DNA from: a virus
Length of the DNA: 64,000 nt
Direction: 5' to 3' (one strand)
IMG/VR virus record: IMGVR_UViG_3300027896_000010
Coordinates: 1 to 64,000 of that record
In this document: in pieces, positions 15,426-48,175 of the stretch
Position numbering within the stretch: position 1 is the stretch's first letter
Layout of the letters: each line of letters starts with the position of its first letter
The notes under the pieces: model-generated
The model's input: only the letters and a program-made list of their open reading frames with translations
The model's database searches: none
Told to the model about the DNA's origin: nothing
Program-made: the position numbers and the translations under genes

Positions 15426-16775
15426 TCACCCCACATACATCGTGACTTCATACCTTGAGCCACCATCTCTAGTTTCTTGCGTGTACCACTGGAAGAACAA
15501 TGAGCTATTCTTGGCCACTGGCACTTGAATCGTGGCGGCATCTCCTGTATAGATTCCATCTAGACCGTAAGGGTTGCCACCTTCCTCTTCTATAATCTTC
15601 CAGACATCACCTATCGGAAGCTCTTGGAAGTAAGTGCCAAGACCTCTGAGCCTCTTATTAATATTCTTGCGTATTTTTCCGTTGAACACAGGGGCGAAGC
15701 CACCTTCTTCAATTGAGAGCTTGTTGCGAAACTCTTCTGGTGCGCTTTCATAAGCAATAGGGTCTTGCTCGATAACCTCATACCCACCGAACAACGGTTG
15801 CGCTTTCAGTTTAGGCTTAGTCATGCTCTTGTATTTTCTGAGAGCTTCGTCCTGTGTAAAGTTTGTTTTCTGGTCAAGCTCTTTTCGCCTGAGTTCATTG
15901 GTGCGCCTATAATGCTCCATGGGAGATAGCTTCTTACGCCTGATGAACCACGCTTTCTTTGTAAACACGCCATTGGCATATTTGCTATTAACCTCTAGTC
16001 CGGGCAAGGGACTCTGCCAACCTATCTCTTCCCATGGAAATGGCTTGCCCATGAGCTTGTCTACAACAAGTCCTATCTTCAAATCAGCCTTCGGGTTTTC
16101 CATTTTATAGAGGTCTTCTCCGTAATTCTCACAACCCTTCTCAAGCCCATCCAGAATCATATCTTCCATGTGTGGTGTAATATGACCATCCATGAATGCT
16201 TCAGAATCTGCAGGAACCAGATGCTCAACAACATAGTTATAAGCATAGACAGGAATCTCTGTCTCTTCTTGGGTCATAGCCGCCTTCGGCATATCCTCGA
16301 TACTCTCTGGAACTGGCAAGGCCACCACATTCTCCTGAGGACTCATATAGCTCCATTCCTCAGAGCCACAGCGGGGGCAAGCCCATATGGAACTCATGCT
16401 TGGAGTAGAGTTGGCAGGGTTGATATCAACCAGTTCACTTTCACCACCACTCCAGCCGCATTCAGCACAAGTTGCCATGTCGGTAAGGTTTAAATCCCTA
16501 GCAAATATCTGCCTATAAGATTCCTTAGAAGGCATAGTGTTCTTATTTATTTCATCCATGACTCTTGCCTCTACCTCCTTACGTTCTTCGTCTGATACTG
16601 TCATCCCAAGATTGTGACTAGCAGACCCGATGGCCTTATCAACTATTGCTATAATATTAGATTGAGAATTATCCGTTCTCATACCCTTGATAGTCTCTCC
16701 AAGCCAGCCACCAGCATCAGCAGACTTCATTATCAATTTATATGTTTGCCTTACCAGCGTATCCAAATCTGCCAT
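15426..16775 (-). CDS. multidomain hypothetical protein with zinc ribbon
   Basis: CAECGW..CPRCGS; domains appear separated by IFAR, KAAM and KKAWF junctions. Confidence 0.65.
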   Translation of the reverse strand: MADLDTLVRQTYKLIMKSADAGGWLGETIKGMRTDNSQSNIIAIVDKAIGSASHNLGMTVSDEERKEVEARVMDEINKNTMPSKESYRQIFARDLNLTDMATCAECGWSGGESELVDINPANSTPSMSSIWACPRCGSEEWSYMSPQENVVALPVPESIEDMPKAAMTQEETEIPVYAYNYVVEHLVPADSEAFMDGHITPHMEDMILDGLEKGCENYGEDLYKMENPKADLKIGLVVDKLMGKPFPWEEIGWQSPLPGLEVNSKYANGVFTKKAWFIRRKKLSPMEHYRRTNELRRKELDQKTNFTQDEALRKYKSMTKPKLKAQPLFGGYEVIEQDPIAYESAPEEFRNKLSIEEGGFAPVFNGKIRKNINKRLRGLGTYFQELPIGDVWKIIEEEGGNPYGLDGIYTGDAATIQVPVAKNSSLFFQWYTQETRDGGSRYEVTMYVG

Positions 16776-16804
16776 GTATTCTCCCGATATTGTTGCAATA
16801 AATA

Positions 16805-17375
16805 AGGTCGCCCAGCTTATGCCAAGCGACCTGTAATATTCAAGCTGGTGGTGTATACTGACGCCTAGCTTGAGCCAGACGCCCCACCAGCCCCCGGACT
16901 AAATGGGCTTTCACCCAGTTCTTCCTAGCTAGCCCCCGCAATCTAGAGGAGGGGCTAGCTTACCAAAGGAGGTCTAAAGATGGAGAGCCATGTCGGAACT
17001 CTTATCCATCTACCGCCGATATTAAGGACTCAGCGGCTACGTCCTATGCCTACTTGGGTTCTGTCGCCCCTTCTCGAAAACAACAGAACCCTTTTTGCGT
17101 GGCCTTCCTCGCCTCACAAGTGCCATCTGCATACCTGCCTCAAGGTCTCAGTAGACCGTTGCTTCCTGAGGCTCTGCCTTGTGAGCAGAGCCTTTGATAT
17201 AGGCCGTGGGGACCTTTATCGAAATTAGCATACTACATCTTCCCACTCTATGCAAGCTTTTGAGGTCGGAACGCCCCAGCAACCTCCTACCGCCAAAGCT
17301 GGGAACACTGTCTTGCATCATTAATGACACCCGCGAAGTATCCCTCGTGGGCGTTGCCACTCAGACAGGCCCGAC
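16805..17375 (-). ncRNA. candidate large structured non-coding RNA (unassigned class)
   Basis: no convincing gene in a gene-dense genome; at least 8 hairpins with G-U pairs only on the minus strand; ends in a 12-bp hairpin plus U-rich tail. Confidence 0.6.
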
Positions 17376-17716
17376 TACTTACTATCCTTTATCCGCAAGT
17401 TTTCTATCATAGTCTCAATCTCAGCCCGATTACTATGAGGACAGACTACAGATTTGCCTTGAGGTTTCTTGCCCAGCCTCATCAGTTCGGTGATAATTGG
17501 GTCAGCGTATTCTTCAAACAACCAGTTAATTTCATCCTGCGGGATGTCCTCTATCTTCAAAGGCTCACAAACCCATGAAATATAATTGGTCTTGTTACAA
17601 CTCCGACACACAAAGTCAATCGACCCGCAAGTAGGCGCATACCAGACCTCGTCTGGATACTGCTCCCCACAATATGCACAGTTCAAGCCTTCGAGAGTAA
17701 AACGGTCACCCATCAC
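17375..17716 (-). CDS. zinc-ribbon protein
   Basis: CAYCG..CGS..CRSC. Confidence 0.6.
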   Translation of the reverse strand: MMGDRFTLEGLNCAYCGEQYPDEVWYAPTCGSIDFVCRSCNKTNYISWVCEPLKIEDIPQDEINWLFEEYADPIITELMRLGKKPQGKSVVCPHSNRAEIETMIENLRIKDSK

Positions 17717-17901
17717 TCATCACTCCACGCGATGTATATGACTCTGCCAAGTTCCTCGAAAAGTTTGTTCATCTCATCTCGATACTCTACCCATGCATTA
17801 TGGGCTTCAACAATACGCTCTTCCAACGGGAACCGAACAGTACGCCCGTCGAAGATGAATCCATGCATCTCCAGTAGCCTTTGCATCTGCTTCTCATTCA
17901 T
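17713..17901 (-). CDS. small hypothetical protein
   Basis: start reassigned to MNEKQ at 17901, overlapping the ligase stop. Confidence 0.5.
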   Translation of the reverse strand: MNEKQMQRLLEMHGFIFDGRTVRFPLEERIVEAHNAWVEYRDEMNKLFEELGRVIYIAWSDE

Positions 17902-19261
17902 CTCTTCCCACCCTCTCTCCGAAAGACTTCGTAGCCAACAACTCTTTGTACCACTCCGGTAGCCCAGCAACCGCCTTGCGCTTAAGGTCTCCACCAAACT
18001 CTTTCCAGAGAAATGCAAGTATCTCGTCCTTACACTCTCCCTCTATATCCAAGTGGACTTCTTTAAGTAGCCGCCCTATGTCTCTCGGCGCAGACTCAAG
18101 CTCACCCTTGTCTGCAAGATGCTGAACAGCTTTCTGCCAACGAGCTTCAGACCTGTACTGCTCACAGAAAACTTCCCATCTGCCTTTGGACTTATTCTCG
18201 CGGTTCCAGTCCTTCTCGTGCTTCTCCTTATACTTCTCGGACACGAATTTACCCATCATCAGCGGAATAGGCTGACCGCCCAACAGGAATGGTCTGGCGT
18301 AGTTCTTGCAAACCACACCCTCTACTTTATTGCCGCCCAGAAAGCTGTCGGTCTCAAGCAGTTCTACCAACTGCTCTATGGACTCGACCATGCCATAGTA
18401 AAGCATTGGCGCTACATCTATCTCTAGAAGCCTAGCATAGTCCTTAAGCTCATCATGAACGCTCACAAACTTCATAGAAGTATCTGACACCCCAAACAAT
18501 ACCAAGTTATTCTCTGGCACACGCTCATAGGCAAGGACATTGTGCCTTGAGGCCCGAAGATACTCAGCGTGGAATACCGTGTTATCAGGTATCCTGTCCT
18601 CTATCGACAATATATAATCGATAGCCTTATCGAACATCTTCTCTGGAAACTCTATGAATATCTCCTTGCCCTTGCTCCGCATACACAACTCTCCATCCAA
18701 CCTGCCGAAATTAAACTGGCTGTTGTGAACGAGAATGTTATTAACCAAGTAATTATGATTGCCTTCAACGCTAATGTCATATTTAGTTTTGTTGTGGGGC
18801 GTAAACGATTCTATTGAAAGAATCTCCCGGGGTTCAACAGGATTACCAGCCAGTTCTCTATGCAACACTCTTTCACCAACAGATATATCGTCAGCCTTGA
18901 CCCAACCTCTCCCGTCAATTTTTATATGGTGATTTGGGGTACAACGCAAGGCGTAACTTTGACCATGATAGCCCTTGACACTTATCTTCATCCAGTCCTT
19001 GGTTGTCCCATTTTTATGCCACCCGTTAATTGAGCAGACCTCCACTAGACCTGTCTCTTCATTAAAAGACAATACGTCCAAGAGCATTCGATTGTTAACA
19101 ATCTTGCCAATCTTCTCCTTGGAACCATCAGCCAAAATCACCAAACTCTCATAATCAAAACAACCATCCACCTTCTCCGTAATTTCGACTGGCTCATTGA
19201 AGAGGTCTCGTATGTAGTCCTGCCCTATAGCGAATATCTTAGGGAATGCCCTAAGCCCCAT
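17894..19261 (-). CDS. Rnl2-like ATP-dependent RNA ligase, intein-interrupted
   Basis: motif I EKVDG|SQF, III FHAEY, IIIa LVLFGV, IV EGVVCK, V KFVSEKYKE. Confidence 0.8.
   Translation of the reverse strand: MGLRAFPKIFAIGQDYIRDLFNEPVEITEKVDGCFDYESLVILADGSKEKIGKIVNNRMLLDVLSFNEETGLVEVCSINGWHKNGTTKDWMKISVKGYHGQSYALRCTPNHHIKIDGRGWVKADDISVGERVLHRELAGNPVEPREILSIESFTPHNKTKYDISVEGNHNYLVNNILVHNSQFNFGRLDGELCMRSKGKEIFIEFPEKMFDKAIDYILSIEDRIPDNTVFHAEYLRASRHNVLAYERVPENNLVLFGVSDTSMKFVSVHDELKDYARLLEIDVAPMLYYGMVESIEQLVELLETDSFLGGNKVEGVVCKNYARPFLLGGQPIPLMMGKFVSEKYKEKHEKDWNRENKSKGRWEVFCEQYRSEARWQKAVQHLADKGELESAPRDIGRLLKEVHLDIEGECKDEILAFLWKEFGGDLKRKAVAGLPEWYKELLATKSFGERVGRDE
18722..19162 (-). mobile_element. 147-aa mini-intein (no endonuclease)
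   Basis: C1 CFDYES, block B CTPNHH, block F YDISVEGNHNY, ends ILVHN followed by Ser+1. Confidence 0.9.
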
Positions 19262-20268: not shown

Positions 20269-20782
20269 GCGCCTGACTCTCCTTCAAAATCAAAGTAACC
20301 TCTTCCATAGCAGATTGCGCTTGGTCATATGCATCCCCAAGCTTGGCGAATACTTCGATAAGTATCTTCTGGAACTCTTTTTCTTTGGCTACTTCTGCTG
20401 TCGCCGCTACGACATCAATAAGTTCCTTGGGACTGGTCGTCTTGGGGAGAAACTTATCAACACCAATGTTAATTGCTTTTAAGAGGATATCTTTTTCGGT
20501 GTTATTGGATACAACTATTATACCTATATCAGGGCGTTGCGCTTTTGCTTTTTGGGCAAACTCCAGCCCTGCCGCCCTATCAGGAGATTCGTCTGGAAAG
20601 GCAAGGTCTAGGATGACAACGTCAAAGCGTTCATCCCTTATCTGTTTTTCTGCCTCAGACAGGGTGGTACAGACATATGTAACACAACCCGCATCATGCA
20701 GAATCTCCTCTAACAAGAAATCAAAATCATTATCGTCGTCTATAATCAGAACATCATCATCTATCCTAATTTTCGTGTCCAT
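20258..20782 (-). CDS. response regulator receiver-domain protein
   Basis: VLIIDDD acidic pocket, VVILD phospho-acceptor, IIVVS, FLPK lysine. Confidence 0.88.
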   Translation of the reverse strand: MDTKIRIDDDVLIIDDDNDFDFLLEEILHDAGCVTYVCTTLSEAEKQIRDERFDVVILDLAFPDESPDRAAGLEFAQKAKAQRPDIGIIVVSNNTEKDILLKAINIGVDKFLPKTTSPKELIDVVAATAEVAKEKEFQKILIEVFAKLGDAYDQAQSAMEEVTLILKESQAHGV

Positions 20783-21629
20783 TCTCTTTCACTTCCTCTA
20801 AAATAGCATTAGCCCTGTCCATGTTTCTCTGTAACCTGTGAAACAATCCATTAGATGCAAGGATATCGTGTTCCAGTTGAACGGCTCTGGTAATATCCTC
20901 GCCCGTACTAATCGTCGCAATAATCTTGCCATCCCTGTCCCTTATCAGACTGTTATACCAAGACATAGATATTTGTTTACCATTGCAATTCAATATCGTA
21001 TTCTCGTAAGCAGAACTGGTCGCATCTGACACGCCAGAAATAAGCCTTTGGAATTCCAGCTTCACGCACTCTCTCTCATCTTCAGGGACAAAACAATTAA
21101 ACCAGTTATGACCGATAATATCTTCCCTAGAACATTCCAGTATTGCAAGCCCCTTATTGTTAATATCTATTACCGTTTCATCGTGCTGGATTACTATCAT
21201 AAAAACTGGAGCCATATAAAAATATGAATGAGCCATCGAATAGCCATTGCCGAAAACTTCTTTCTGCATCAACTGATAAGACATATCTCTGAATATGCCC
21301 CACATCCCTATAGGATTTCCATCGTCATCTTTTATCAACCACACTCGAAGGTTAACTGGGAATATAGTGCCATCCTTGCGTATATATGCTTTCTCGTAAG
21401 GGTCTGCATGCCCTTTTGTCATTATCTGTTCTCTTACAATCTTCTCTTCAAAACTATGCCATTGCTCTGGAGTTAGGTCTTGATAGGTCAACTTTTTCAA
21501 CTCGTCCAGAGAATAGCCCACCATTGTTTGATACGCCCTATTGGCGTCCATGATATGCCCCTCCATATCAGTCAATAGAATCCCATCTAAACTGGTTTCA
21601 AACATATGCTGGTATCTTGTGTCCATCAC
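20766..21629 (-). CDS. tandem PAS/PAC-domain protein without a kinase domain
   Basis: two PAS-PAC repeats (ILLTD..G.I..AN; YIRKDGTIFPV; IIG.NWF; GEDIT). Confidence 0.85.
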   Translation of the reverse strand: MMDTRYQHMFETSLDGILLTDMEGHIMDANRAYQTMVGYSLDELKKLTYQDLTPEQWHSFEEKIVREQIMTKGHADPYEKAYIRKDGTIFPVNLRVWLIKDDDGNPIGMWGIFRDMSYQLMQKEVFGNGYSMAHSYFYMAPVFMIVIQHDETVIDINNKGLAILECSREDIIGHNWFNCFVPEDERECVKLEFQRLISGVSDATSSAYENTILNCNGKQISMSWYNSLIRDRDGKIIATISTGEDITRAVQLEHDILASNGLFHRLQRNMDRANAILEEVKENGHEN

Positions 21630-22111: not shown

Positions 22112-22137
22112 AAAAAAGCCTCTTTCTCAGAGGCTTA
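22112..22137 (-). terminator. intrinsic terminator closing the leader-gene cluster
   Basis: AAGCCTCT-gagaa-AGAGGCTT followed by TTTT on the minus strand. Confidence 0.75.
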
Positions 22138-44923: not shown

Positions 44924-47900
44924 TCAAACAATCTGTTCACGGCGACGAGCATCCAATTCACCAAGTTTTCCATCATTCCATGAAGACACCTTAGAGAAAT
45001 ATCCAGTTATGCGAGTCATCCCATACACATGCCGTGATTTGCAGAAGGAGCATTTGTCATACAGCCCTCTGGTAGTTTTGCCACAATCCTCGCACACCGT
45101 GAATTCTGGCGAAAAAGCGACCTGCGTACAACCTGTGTTATTATAAATCTTCATCACTACTGTTTCGATACTCGCTGGATATGGTTCGTATTCTCCCAGC
45201 CACACATGACAGATAGCTCCTGCTTTTATGAACTGGTGGAACTGAGATTGCTTCTCAATTCTTTCTATGAAATCAACAGGAGCGTCTGTAGCGAGATGAA
45301 CGCTGTTAGTATAGTAGTAATGACCATTGGAAGTATCACCCTTGACCACGCTCTTAGCCTGTTCTGGGAACTGTTGGAGGTCAAGAGTGGCAAGCCTATA
45401 CCCACTAGACTCTGCGGGAGTCTCTTCAAGAGCAAGTTTGATTTTATACTTATCGCTTGCTATCAAAACTTCTCCAGCCATGCGCCCTATAACGTCCAAG
45501 CCAAATTCAAAAGCCTCATCACTTTCATGTAGCTGGGTGCCTTTGTGAAATTGCACCATCTCATTCAAACCAAAGACGCCAATCAAAAAAGTAGTTTCAT
45601 CAAGCCGAAGGTATGCTTCCCCATCCTCTGATTTCACAAAGAAATTAAGTGGCCCCGCATCACCGATATCAACCAGCCTTTTGATGAACTTCTTTTTCTG
45701 GAGGTGGCTCTTAACTGCAAGCTCGATATGCTCCTTGATAAGCTCGAATAATTTCTTATCATCGCCATCAGCCCTGTACGCCAGCCTTGGCAAGTTAATG
45801 GTGGTATTCTGGAGGGCGGTGAACCGAAGCTTCTCTGGTTGCATGGCTCGTTCCAAATCACGCTCATCCAGCTTCAGGTTAAGGCGGCAGTTATGGGTAA
45901 TAATCCCATTGGGAAGAGAAAACAGTTGGGAATCTGAATCCACTACAAAATCATATACATATTTTTGATTAGGATTTCTCTTGCGCCTATCAACCTCCAC
46001 AACTTCCAGATAAGCCCTGTTTGTCTTATCTCTTTTCGCCTTCCCGAATAGGCACATATTAGGGTAATCTGTACCACCCATGCCATTCAACACCAAATGT
46101 CGTGTGTCCTTAAGAATATTGACTATATAGGAAGTATATTTGTACCCCTCTTTAGTAGTATTAGCCTTATTGGTTCGAATAGAATAATGCGCCCCAACAG
46201 AAACAAGTATAGACGCTATGTCTTTAACCAATTGCTTACTACTCAAATGTATAGAGCAATCATTATCCCTGCTATAGCCATCTCCATCAAACATCCCCTG
46301 TATAAATCCCATCCTGAACGACAAACCCATATTGAATACCCTGCTATATAAACATTTCTCTGGAGCCGTTTTGCCCCCTATATATTCTTTCATCAGGGCG
46401 GTGAACCACTTGCTTTTAACTGAAACTGTACAGGCATTCCATTTCTTATCATAATATATATGCGACAAAGCCCCAAAGCGTTCTTTAGCAAAGCCAATTA
46501 TGAAATCAATTAACTCATCCTCTTTGGGATGAAGACAAAAAATCGTTTCGGACCCCCTGCTACAATACCCTTCGCTTGCGTACAGCCCAACTATTCTGCC
46601 TAGGTCATAATCCCCCAAGCCACTAGAGTCTTCGGACTCCATCAAATCCTTATCGGTTACAGGCAACCAATCCCCAACACTTAAGTCAGAAGCATTTATG
46701 ATTTTATAATCATCCCCATCCAATATCGGTTGTAAATGGTCTTCCGTAACAATAATAGAAGAACCATTAGACAGCGTCACCTTAATCATATATTCTGGCG
46801 AGGGCAATACTATCAACTCTTTCACTTTCGCCCAGCCCTCGGGTGACCATGTTTCCAAACCATCTAGGTCTGAGTAATCCTTGAGAGTACTAAAGTTAAC
46901 ATACTTAACAATATTGTTATGCCTGATAAACACTCTAGTATCACCAGCTAGGCAACATTGAGCCACGCTTGCCCCATCTCTGTCGAACAGGAAATAGGTG
47001 ATGCCCTGCTTGCTTGCCACACTACATATTAATTCAAAGAAACAATCCCAACCCGGGCTATCCATGGCTTCTTGATTGATATGAACTAGTGGCTTGGGGA
47101 AGACAAATGTGGAGCCTCTGGAGTCACCCTTCTTGTAGATTTCAAACAACGCCTTGGCGAACAAATTGGACTCCCACTCAAAGTCTTGATAGGTCACCCA
47201 CCGATAGCCCTCTGGTAATATCTCATCGGTCTCATCGGCAATGATTGTCCCTGTTAGGCCATCATTCTTAACCGCCATGTATTTGCCACCAGAAACAATA
47301 GCAGGAGTATTCTTAAAACGATTTGGGATTCCATAGTAGATATTAAAATCGGAAAATACAGCCTGACCACCACGAGCGCCAGCCAACTGATTAAACTCGA
47401 AGATAAGCATCTGGGCAATCTGCTCGATTTCATCATAGTTCAGCCCACGCAATAGAGGGGCGAAGAAAACGTTGACCGCTTCCCATCCAACTGCCCCAGC
47501 ATAGTTCGCTTGCAATACTGATGCCATCTTCACCATGTGACCGACAAGGACTGCTGAATGTTTTGCTGGACTGCTGGTACTAGTGATATTGGGTAGCCTC
47601 AGTCCATACTTCTTGACATACTCTAGGCTATGTCCACCGCAGTAGGGCCTAACAACTAAGCCTAAGTCATGGACATGGATATCGCCCTTGAGATGAGCCT
47701 CGGCTATGTCTGGAGTAAAAACGTGCTGGAGAGCGTACTGTTTTAAAACTGTTTCTGCTATTGTGAGATTAATACTTTCGGGACTGTAGGGAGTGTTACT
47801 ATTTTCTTTGTTCGCCCCAGTGAGAATGCTATCCAAATTATGGGTTGGAATTCCAAGGATGTTATACTTGGCAAGGGTGCCAGAGTATCCTTCCCTTACA

Positions 47901-48175
47901 AGGATGGAGTTAATCATTTCACGAATCTGGTTCGTGGTGATACGGTCAAATCCTGACTCTATGATTAGGTCTTCTACTTCGTCTGCTATCTCCTGTATTT
48001 TGACTTCACCTAGTCTATGATGGCCTTCCTCTTTAAGGCTGTCTACTATCTTCTGCTTATCCCAAATAACTATCTCTTCACCAGCAAATGCATTAACCAT
48101 TAATGCTACATCTGTGGCGCTTGAAACGGCTCCCCCATTACCATTGCCATTGGTTTTTATAACTTTTACAGGCAT
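44924..48175 (-). CDS. nrdD: anaerobic (class III) ribonucleoside-triphosphate reductase with ATP cone, intein-interrupted
   Basis: ATP-cone WDKQKI; AHLKGDIHVHDL; finger loop AQC|CRL; CEDC..CSFC; glycyl radical RITGY. Confidence 0.93.
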   Translation of the reverse strand: MPVKVIKTNGNGNGGAVSSATDVALMVNAFAGEEIVIWDKQKIVDSLKEEGHHRLGEVKIQEIADEVEDLIIESGFDRITTNQIREMINSILVREGYSGTLAKYNILGIPTHNLDSILTGANKENSNTPYSPESINLTIAETVLKQYALQHVFTPDIAEAHLKGDIHVHDLGLVVRPYCGGHSLEYVKKYGLRLPNITSTSSPAKHSAVLVGHMVKMASVLQANYAGAVGWEAVNVFFAPLLRGLNYDEIEQIAQMLIFEFNQLAGARGGQAVFSDFNIYYGIPNRFKNTPAIVSGGKYMAVKNDGLTGTIIADETDEILPEGYRWVTYQDFEWESNLFAKALFEIYKKGDSRGSTFVFPKPLVHINQEAMDSPGWDCFFELICSVASKQGITYFLFDRDGASVAQCCLAGDTRVFIRHNNIVKYVNFSTLKDYSDLDGLETWSPEGWAKVKELIVLPSPEYMIKVTLSNGSSIIVTEDHLQPILDGDDYKIINASDLSVGDWLPVTDKDLMESEDSSGLGDYDLGRIVGLYASEGYCSRGSETIFCLHPKEDELIDFIIGFAKERFGALSHIYYDKKWNACTVSVKSKWFTALMKEYIGGKTAPEKCLYSRVFNMGLSFRMGFIQGMFDGDGYSRDNDCSIHLSSKQLVKDIASILVSVGAHYSIRTNKANTTKEGYKYTSYIVNILKDTRHLVLNGMGGTDYPNMCLFGKAKRDKTNRAYLEVVEVDRRKRNPNQKYVYDFVVDSDSQLFSLPNGIITHNCRLNLKLDERDLERAMQPEKLRFTALQNTTINLPRLAYRADGDDKKLFELIKEHIELAVKSHLQKKKFIKRLVDIGDAGPLNFFVKSEDGEAYLRLDETTFLIGVFGLNEMVQFHKGTQLHESDEAFEFGLDVIGRMAGEVLIASDKYKIKLALEETPAESSGYRLATLDLQQFPEQAKSVVKGDTSNGHYYYTNSVHLATDAPVDFIERIEKQSQFHQFIKAGAICHVWLGEYEPYPASIETVVMKIYNNTGCTQVAFSPEFTVCEDCGKTTRGLYDKCSFCKSRHVYGMTRITGYFSKVSSWNDGKLGELDARRREQIV
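45890..46954 (-). mobile_element. 355-aa intein with LAGLIDADG homing endonuclease
   Basis: C1 CLAGD, block B VTEDH, LAGLIDADG-type LGRIVGLYASEG and FIQGMFDGDG, ends THN followed by Cys+1. Confidence 0.92.

Follow-up and report, generated by a model that had tools for sequence, protein, structure and literature searches.

The pRNA of the phi29 family, ~120–174 nt long and located at the genome end of small podoviruses, has a demonstrably conserved secondary structure, which relatives keep with almost no sequence identity. Hence, failure to align between related phages is compatible with a phage RNA being functional. The PeSL cassettes (early promoter plus stem-loop) of T4-type phages are present in many copies per genome and carry a short conserved stem-loop sequence at the border of conserved and swapped gene segments. 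ROOL, GOLLD and similar large structured phage RNAs are among the least understood RNA classes. ROOL (RF03087) and GOLLD (RF01998) are GC-enriched noncoding RNAs of ~0.5–0.8 kb from phages and prophages, the function of which is unknown, and both retain conserved nucleotides across distant hosts (PMC5737381, PMC12286853). In jumbo phages, ncRNAs have been mapped by RNA-seq, four of them in PA5oct, for example (PMC7318152).

We analysed a window comprising the first 64 kb of the 193-kb IMG/VR phage record IMGVR_UViG_3300027896_000010, which is estimated to be 95% complete. One gap between genes in this window resembles ROOL and GOLLD in its size, its carriage by a phage and its GC enrichment relative to the surroundings. 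It differs from both in that it is predicted to form a row of hairpins, has no tRNA neighbours and has only a terminator in common with a fairly close relative, the contig L002. Unlike the case of phi29 pRNA, a structure common to the window and L002 gaps was not found with covariance models. As in PeSL, the conserved hairpin of the gap sits at the border of conserved and swapped gene blocks, but it is single-copy, and the adjoining structured body of 400–600 nt has no PeSL counterpart. The gap shares with the jumbo-phage ncRNAs an intergenic position in a large phage. A long structured stretch followed by a terminator hairpin and the ribosome-binding site of the next gene also recalls T-box and riboswitch attenuator leaders; unlike these, the gap has no match to a known aptamer or T-box model, no clear conserved antiterminator and no conserved body. 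It is set apart from deposited phages as well, since blastn of both gaps against 50,697 deposited phage genomes gave no match. We regard the locus as a well-supported RNA candidate in a very poorly sampled phage lineage, not as a demonstrated new class.

An ORF-free gap folds strongly on the gene strand

The minus strand carries essentially all genes of the phage. The gap (16776–17374) lies between a 113-aa Cys-rich ORF (17375–17716) and a 449-aa ORF (15426–16775). No credible ORF was found in 16776–17374 under genetic code 11 or with TAG read as Gln or TGA as Trp, and neither recoding opens a long frame in the gap, which bears out the preliminary description of a large gap without a credible gene. 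Hidden small protein genes are scarcely believable as an explanation, even though one of them, a 31-aa basic ORF at 17132–17037, has GAGG five bases ahead of its ATG as a plausible ribosome-binding site. Such ORFs cover just a small part of the gap and none is in common with L002; moreover, Arg/Lys-rich peptides are expected from a G-/A-rich structured RNA in any frame. The gap is also neither a MITE nor another repeat element, because it lacks terminal inverted repeats and has no further copy in the 193-kb genome; notable internal direct repeats are likewise absent.

Folding of the gap is considerably more favourable on the minus strand (−249 kcal/mol, z −5.6) than on the plus strand (−200 kcal/mol, z −3.5), supporting the earlier proposal of a minus-strand RNA. 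When 200-nt windows were slid across 12–22 kb, z fell below −3.6 only at 16701–17200, with a minimum of −6.7. Among all gaps of at least 180 nt genome-wide, this is the sole minus-strand gap with z < −3.0 (its GC is 0.52), and the coding sequence and remaining gaps of the phage genome stay within z of about ±3. GC content is 52% in the gap versus ~45% in its surroundings; in the structured part it is 0.51–0.54, versus ~0.45 in the flanks.

The MFE, shuffles, 200-nt windows and GC content together delimit a 426-nt structured core of the candidate RNA, running on the minus strand from 17222 to 16797, with an MFE of −189 kcal/mol (z −5.8) that none of 100 shuffles equalled. The 5' 154 nt of the gap fold at chance level (z −1.0; 34 of 200 shuffles equally stable). 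Hence, of the structured extent of ~570 nt originally put forward, the core stands and the 5' part does not, and a stem proposed at 17275–17303 (CCCAGC/GCTGGG) is unsupported: it is present in the sequence, but other pairings replace it in the predicted folds. We therefore describe 17223–17374 (minus strand) as a 5' noncoding spacer that is not significantly structured, holds no credible ORF and has a weak promoter-like site inside.

The gap contains several perfect inverted repeats and is positioned at a mosaic boundary of conserved versus variable gene blocks, both of which could suit an element acting at the DNA level, for instance an origin of replication, a site for packaging or a hot spot of recombination, built from palindromes that form cruciforms. 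We consider this very unlikely. The gap is rich in GC, not in AT, and lacks iterons and direct repeats, the cumulative GC skew does not turn there, and the terminase gene is 43 kb distant. Moreover, many of the pairs on the minus strand are G–U, which would be A–C mismatches on the other strand, and the gene strand gives the better fold in both phages.

The core is predicted to be mostly a row of local hairpins

All stems picked out in the preliminary description are present on the minus strand at their positions, and most of them recur in the MFE fold as well as the MEA fold, at pair probabilities (P) of 0.9–1.0. From its 5' end, the predicted core (all features on the minus strand) begins with a hairpin of 4+5 bp at 17196–17220 (mean pair probability ~0.8) and a 10-bp hairpin at 17169–17193, the arms of which, AGGCUCUGCU and GGCAGAGCCU, form a perfect inverted repeat (P 0.97). 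The hairpin GGUCU-ACUG-AGACC with a 3-bp extension follows at 17141–17161 (P 0.92 and 0.55), then one of 5+3 bp in the predicted fold at 17095–17119 and one of 15 bp with G–U pairs at 17056–17091 (P 0.91). An 8-bp hairpin formed by GCCGCUGA and UCGGCGGU (17012–17045; P 0.99) is followed by a hairpin of 7+5 bp (16978–17011; P 0.91 and 0.82) and an 11-bp hairpin with a 12-nt loop (16927–16960; P 0.98). Towards the 3' end lie a GAAA-tetraloop hairpin at 16896–16925 (P 0.94–0.98) that includes UGGGU-GAAA-GCCCA (16917–16904; P 0.98) and a nested hairpin of 10+10 bp at 16842–16893 (P 0.94 and 1.00). Overall, the prediction is largely a succession of local hairpins rather than an ornate fold with multiple junctions, and it lacks conserved junctions.

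A few pairings beyond these local stems may be drawn. CUUGUGAG (17120–17113), the 5' strand of the hairpin at 17095–17119, is a perfect 8-nt complement on the minus strand of CUCACAAG (17185–17178), ~60 nt upstream, which spans the loop of the 10-bp hairpin at 17193–17169 together with its top pairs; this complementarity, absent from the preliminary description, could reflect a possible pseudoknot or an alternative fold. A candidate H-type pseudoknot at 17045–17012 would combine AGGAC (17045–17041) and GUCCU (17029–17025) with GCCGCUG (17037–17031) and CGGCGGU (17018–17012). Just the second of these stems, GCCGCUG/CGGCGGU, is predicted (P 0.99), and pairing of the hairpin-loop GUCCU with the upstream AGGAC would be sterically possible. 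The 12-nt loop of the 11-bp hairpin at 16960–16927 contains the palindrome UCUAGA (16947–16942, minus strand), which could support loop–loop dimerisation and could easily be due to chance. The inner hairpin GGCGUCUGGC-UCAA-GCUAGGCGUC (16883–16860, minus strand) resembles the terminator hairpin GGUCGCUUGGC-AUAA-GCUGGGCGACC (16832–16805), a likeness scored by model R1 at 14.9 bits (E 0.02), and the two may have arisen by local duplication of a hairpin.

A terminator-like hairpin closes the core

The 3' end of the core is an intrinsic-terminator-like element (16797–16832, minus strand), identified by a terminator scan and consisting of a 12-bp hairpin (16832–16805; P 0.99) and a U-rich tail. Seven of the 12 bp are G–C, the loop is of 4 nt, and the tail, UAUUUAUU, is imperfect. 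With a stem rich in G+C and, after it on the transcribed strand, a tail rich in U, the element has the features of a Rho-independent terminator, and it ranks first among the terminator candidates in the first 40 kb. It ends 29 nt ahead of the ATG of the 449-aa gene. The intervening segment and start codon (16773–16796, minus strand) comprise a conserved short leader, UUGCAA, the ribosome-binding site GGGAG and the ATG. Further good intergenic terminator-like hairpins on the gene strand are found at 22136–22116 and 2799–2780 (minus strand); together with 16832–16805, their spacing suggests transcription units of ~5 kb and ~14 kb.

The start of any transcript is less distinct. A promoter scan found no convincing promoter for a gap RNA. 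Read by eye, a weak σ70-like site, TTGCAT-N17-TATGCT (7/12), lies at 17227–17255 on the minus strand and scores below the threshold of the scan. Its L002 counterpart, TTGCAC-N17-TATACT at 1292–1320, was also read by eye; it occupies the corresponding 5' border of the structured part and overlaps a scan site. The pattern TTGCA-N17-TAT..T shows no clear enrichment genome-wide, nor is the promoter-like word TGCAMGACARTGT, common to both phages, enriched.

The arrangement at the 3' end bears directly on whether the gap is a gene at all. It could instead be a cis-acting structured spacer, that is, a long hairpin-rich 3' untranslated or intercistronic region, which would protect the mRNA upstream of it against attack by 3' exonucleases, separate two transcription units via the terminator and set the level of read-through into the 449-aa gene. 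We view this as somewhat unlikely, although several features are in keeping with it. Only bulk structure would be selected in such a spacer, and its sequence would therefore drift freely, consistent with the simple row of hairpins and with sequence conservation being limited to the terminator and leader. The genes are all co-oriented, the next strong minus-strand terminators being those at 22136–22116 and 2799–2780, and the terminator stands immediately ahead of the next ribosome-binding site. There is no room for a separate promoter after it, so the 449-aa gene needs either read-through or a promoter within the gap. However, a single hairpin suffices for termination or exonuclease protection, whereas the compact genomes of two diverged phages retain 400–600 nt here and no similar gap exists elsewhere in the 193 kb. 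Complementarity to the ribosome-binding site of the 449-aa gene is at chance level. In folds lacking the 3' arm of the terminator, its 5' arm finds a partner at the 5' edge of the gap; this apparent antiterminator pairing occurs in both phages, is confined to 6–7 weak, G–U-rich bp and may be a folding artefact.

The gap matches no known RNA family

Rfam 15, a search of which the preliminary description had proposed, returned no family at the gathering score in the 64-kb window. Under permissive filters at E ≤ 10, the region 16600–17600 gave two chance matches, one on the opposite strand and the other inside the upstream ORF, neither of them relevant, and L002 gave nothing relevant at E ≤ 10, including no ROOL. 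ARAGORN found no tRNA or tmRNA in the 64-kb window. Because Rfam 15 gives nothing relevant even at E ≤ 10, the gap belongs to none of the classes GOLLD, ROOL, group I and II introns, RNase P RNA and tmRNA. The suggestion that it might be GOLLD or ROOL is thus rejected; that it could not be assigned to tRNA, tmRNA, RNase P or group I/II introns agrees with the Rfam and ARAGORN results.

Individual classes fail on further grounds. GOLLD has no covariance-model match in the window or, at E ≤ 10, in 16600–17600, and ROOL has none in the window, that region or L002. Nor does the gap have the setting beside tRNA genes that is frequent for these RNAs in phages and prophages, the three tRNA genes of the phage genome being at 122–133 kb. 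For group I introns (RF00028) there is no match to the P3–P9 core, and AUUGCGGG and UAGUCC, which were noted by eye 35 nt apart, have the wrong P/S spacing. The flanks of the gap are not exons of either intron type: the upstream ORF stops at TAG, and the one downstream starts from an ATG with a ribosome-binding site of its own. L002, moreover, keeps its gap though its upstream ORF is unrelated. Group II introns (RF00029 and relatives) have no Rfam match, and the neighbouring genes encode no RT domain. No covariance-model or ARAGORN match was obtained for tmRNA, RNase P RNA, 6S RNA or SRP RNA. HEARO/IscB omega RNA, which lies upstream of an HNH/RuvC nuclease gene, gave no covariance-model match either, and neither Pfam nor PHROG recognises a domain in the 449-aa neighbouring protein. 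A sponge of the CsrA type is discounted because GGA motifs are, by rough count, no commoner than base composition predicts.

A diverged GOLLD, ROOL, group I/II intron, HEARO/IscB omega RNA, RNase P RNA or tmRNA that the models miss would have a size within the ROOL/GOLLD range and a phage setting in its favour (PMC12286853, PMC5737381). Given the empty searches, the lack of nearby tRNA genes, flanks that are separate genes rather than exons and a neighbouring protein without HNH, RuvC or RT domains, we hold this to be highly improbable.

A related phage has a different sequence in the same slot

A word-index search combined with exhaustive HMMER searches identified a single full-length relative of the 449-aa protein, P0002, which is 59% identical and encoded on the 4.4-kb Logan contig L002. 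No further relative was found in IMG/VR, JGI metagenomes or INPHARED. Searches of IMG/VR and JGI metagenomes for related loci via the 449-aa protein, the 113-aa protein, the terminase and a two-sequence alignment returned none, and scanning DNA for patterns of the terminator and of two internal motifs turned up nothing beyond chance matches in unrelated DNA. This phage lineage is barely sampled. P0004, a distant match to the C-terminal part of the 449-aa protein, is not accompanied by a gap.

L002 has a 640-nt ORF-free gap (1286–1928) in exactly the same slot. This gap folds with z −6.2 on the gene strand versus −3.5 antisense, and its GC content is 0.54–0.58 versus ~0.45 in the flanks. Pairwise alignment and a short-word dot plot revealed no homology alignable between the two gaps outside the terminator hairpin and the leader that follows it. 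Single-sequence covariance models of the two best-structured segments of the window scored insignificantly against L002 (7.2 bits, E 2; 4.1 bits, E 8.6). In the terminator hairpin, 11 pairs are identical and one is changed from G–U to A–U, with no double change, and the tail reads UUUCGUU; the single change would fit pairing on the minus strand.

Different sequences that occupy one slot with similar length, GC rise and strand-specific folding excess are hard to call junk, and this two-phage signature points to selection acting on the structure of a gene-strand RNA. The gap could still be a relic without function, left behind by a gene that decayed or by a mobile insertion and rich in GC and palindromes by chance. 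There is no sequence conservation with the single relative, and the surroundings are mosaic, with an RNA ligase gene and two ORFs in the window versus two unrelated small ORFs in L002. Such a relic is nevertheless decidedly unlikely to account for two unrelated sequences at z ~ −6 in the same slot with equal strand asymmetry and GC rise, when the coding sequence and other gaps of the genome lie within about ±3. Nor does the gap hold an ORF remnant, inverted terminal repeats or other copies.

The two loci also indicate which gene the gap accompanies. Upstream of the L002 gap, the RNA ligase and the 113-aa ORF are absent and are replaced by the two unrelated small ORFs, one of 84 aa. Because the upstream genes differ, the RNA ligase is not the partner of the gap. 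At a third locus, L037, genes directly follow a homologue of the 113-aa ORF, with no gap. Hence, the gap travels with the 449-aa gene and not with the ligase.

Within the L002 gap we observed a 24-nt direct repeat, GGTCYTCTGCCAAGACCTTATAAA (23/24 identical), at 1441–1464 and 1517–1540. Each copy contains a 6-bp hairpin, to which GGUCU-ACUG-AGACCUU (17157–17142) is a loosely similar analogue in the window.

A candidate lineage-specific RNA

A structured noncoding RNA is partly supported by thermodynamics, GC enrichment and the similar gap in a second phage. The explanation that we favour, tentatively and short of calling it probable, is a minus-strand structured noncoding RNA that is specific to this lineage and encoded at a fast-evolving locus. 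The length of the gap, its uniqueness in a compact genome and the weak promoter-like sites at the 5' edge in both phages speak for a discrete RNA gene. Against one are the hairpin-row fold, the failure of the two sequences to align outside the terminator, and a promoter-like motif that is weak, read by eye and not enriched.

Such an RNA would consist of the ~426-nt core from 17222 to 16797, some ten stable G–U-containing hairpins closed by a strong intrinsic terminator. It would be transcribed either from its own weak promoter near 17255–17227 or as the 3' end of a ~5-kb unit with the RNA ligase gene, and would accumulate as a discrete stable RNA. The locus occupies a fixed slot directly upstream of the conserved 449-aa zinc-ribbon gene, and the body would evolve fast or be freely swapped, leaving just the terminator hairpin and a short leader in common at 59% identity of the neighbouring protein. 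The RNA might then work by way of generic helices, for instance as a scaffold or decoy that binds proteins.

Should a stable RNA be made, it would be a case in which related phages retain only the density of folding and the 3' hairpin, the body having turned over entirely. Such a pattern points to a role in an arms race or as a decoy, rather than in catalysis or architecture. Of the RNA, just the 3' hairpin, being conserved, would offer a sequence-specific handle; it would serve as a terminator and perhaps also as an operator for the neighbouring Arg-rich protein, an idea that is unlikely at best. That the 449-aa protein binds the conserved hairpin is speculation. Quite unlikely, too, is the broader conjecture that the slot upstream of this protein harbours a new, rapidly diversifying RNA class of ~0.4–0.6 kb, which would form an RNP with the protein, using the hairpin as handle, and have a hypervariable, host-specific body serving, for example, as decoy for a host RNA-binding defence or RNase.

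Proteins encoded around the gap

The 449-aa gene (15426–16775, minus strand) is the only conserved neighbour of the gap. A sequence alignment shows a zinc ribbon (CxxC...CxxC) as well as a stretch rich in Arg and Lys that is conserved. The protein has no Pfam or PHROG match, the ESM Atlas gave no lead on it, and its AF2 model is poor (pLDDT 47). Its C-terminal ~80 aa (residues ~370–449) also occur free-standing, in proteins of ~88 aa (overall ~86–118 aa), and in other fusions; this domain has 21 representatives at E ≤ 1e-3 and corresponds to no Pfam family. On the other side of the gap, the 113-aa Cys-rich ORF (17375–17716, minus strand) is not linked to it, the 84-aa ORF of L002 at this position being unrelated.

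Several genes farther upstream have features of their own. The RNA ligase gene (PF09414, phrog_548; 17894–19261, minus strand) is interrupted by a mini-intein (PF14890, residues 41–180). A PAS-PAS protein (PF13426, PF08448) without a kinase domain is encoded at 20766–21629 (minus strand). A 1083-aa NrdD-like anaerobic ribonucleotide reductase (44924–48175, minus strand) has PHROG matches mainly to residues 788–1079, one match starting at residue 402, and the long N-terminal part of this protein may hold an insertion or extra domain.
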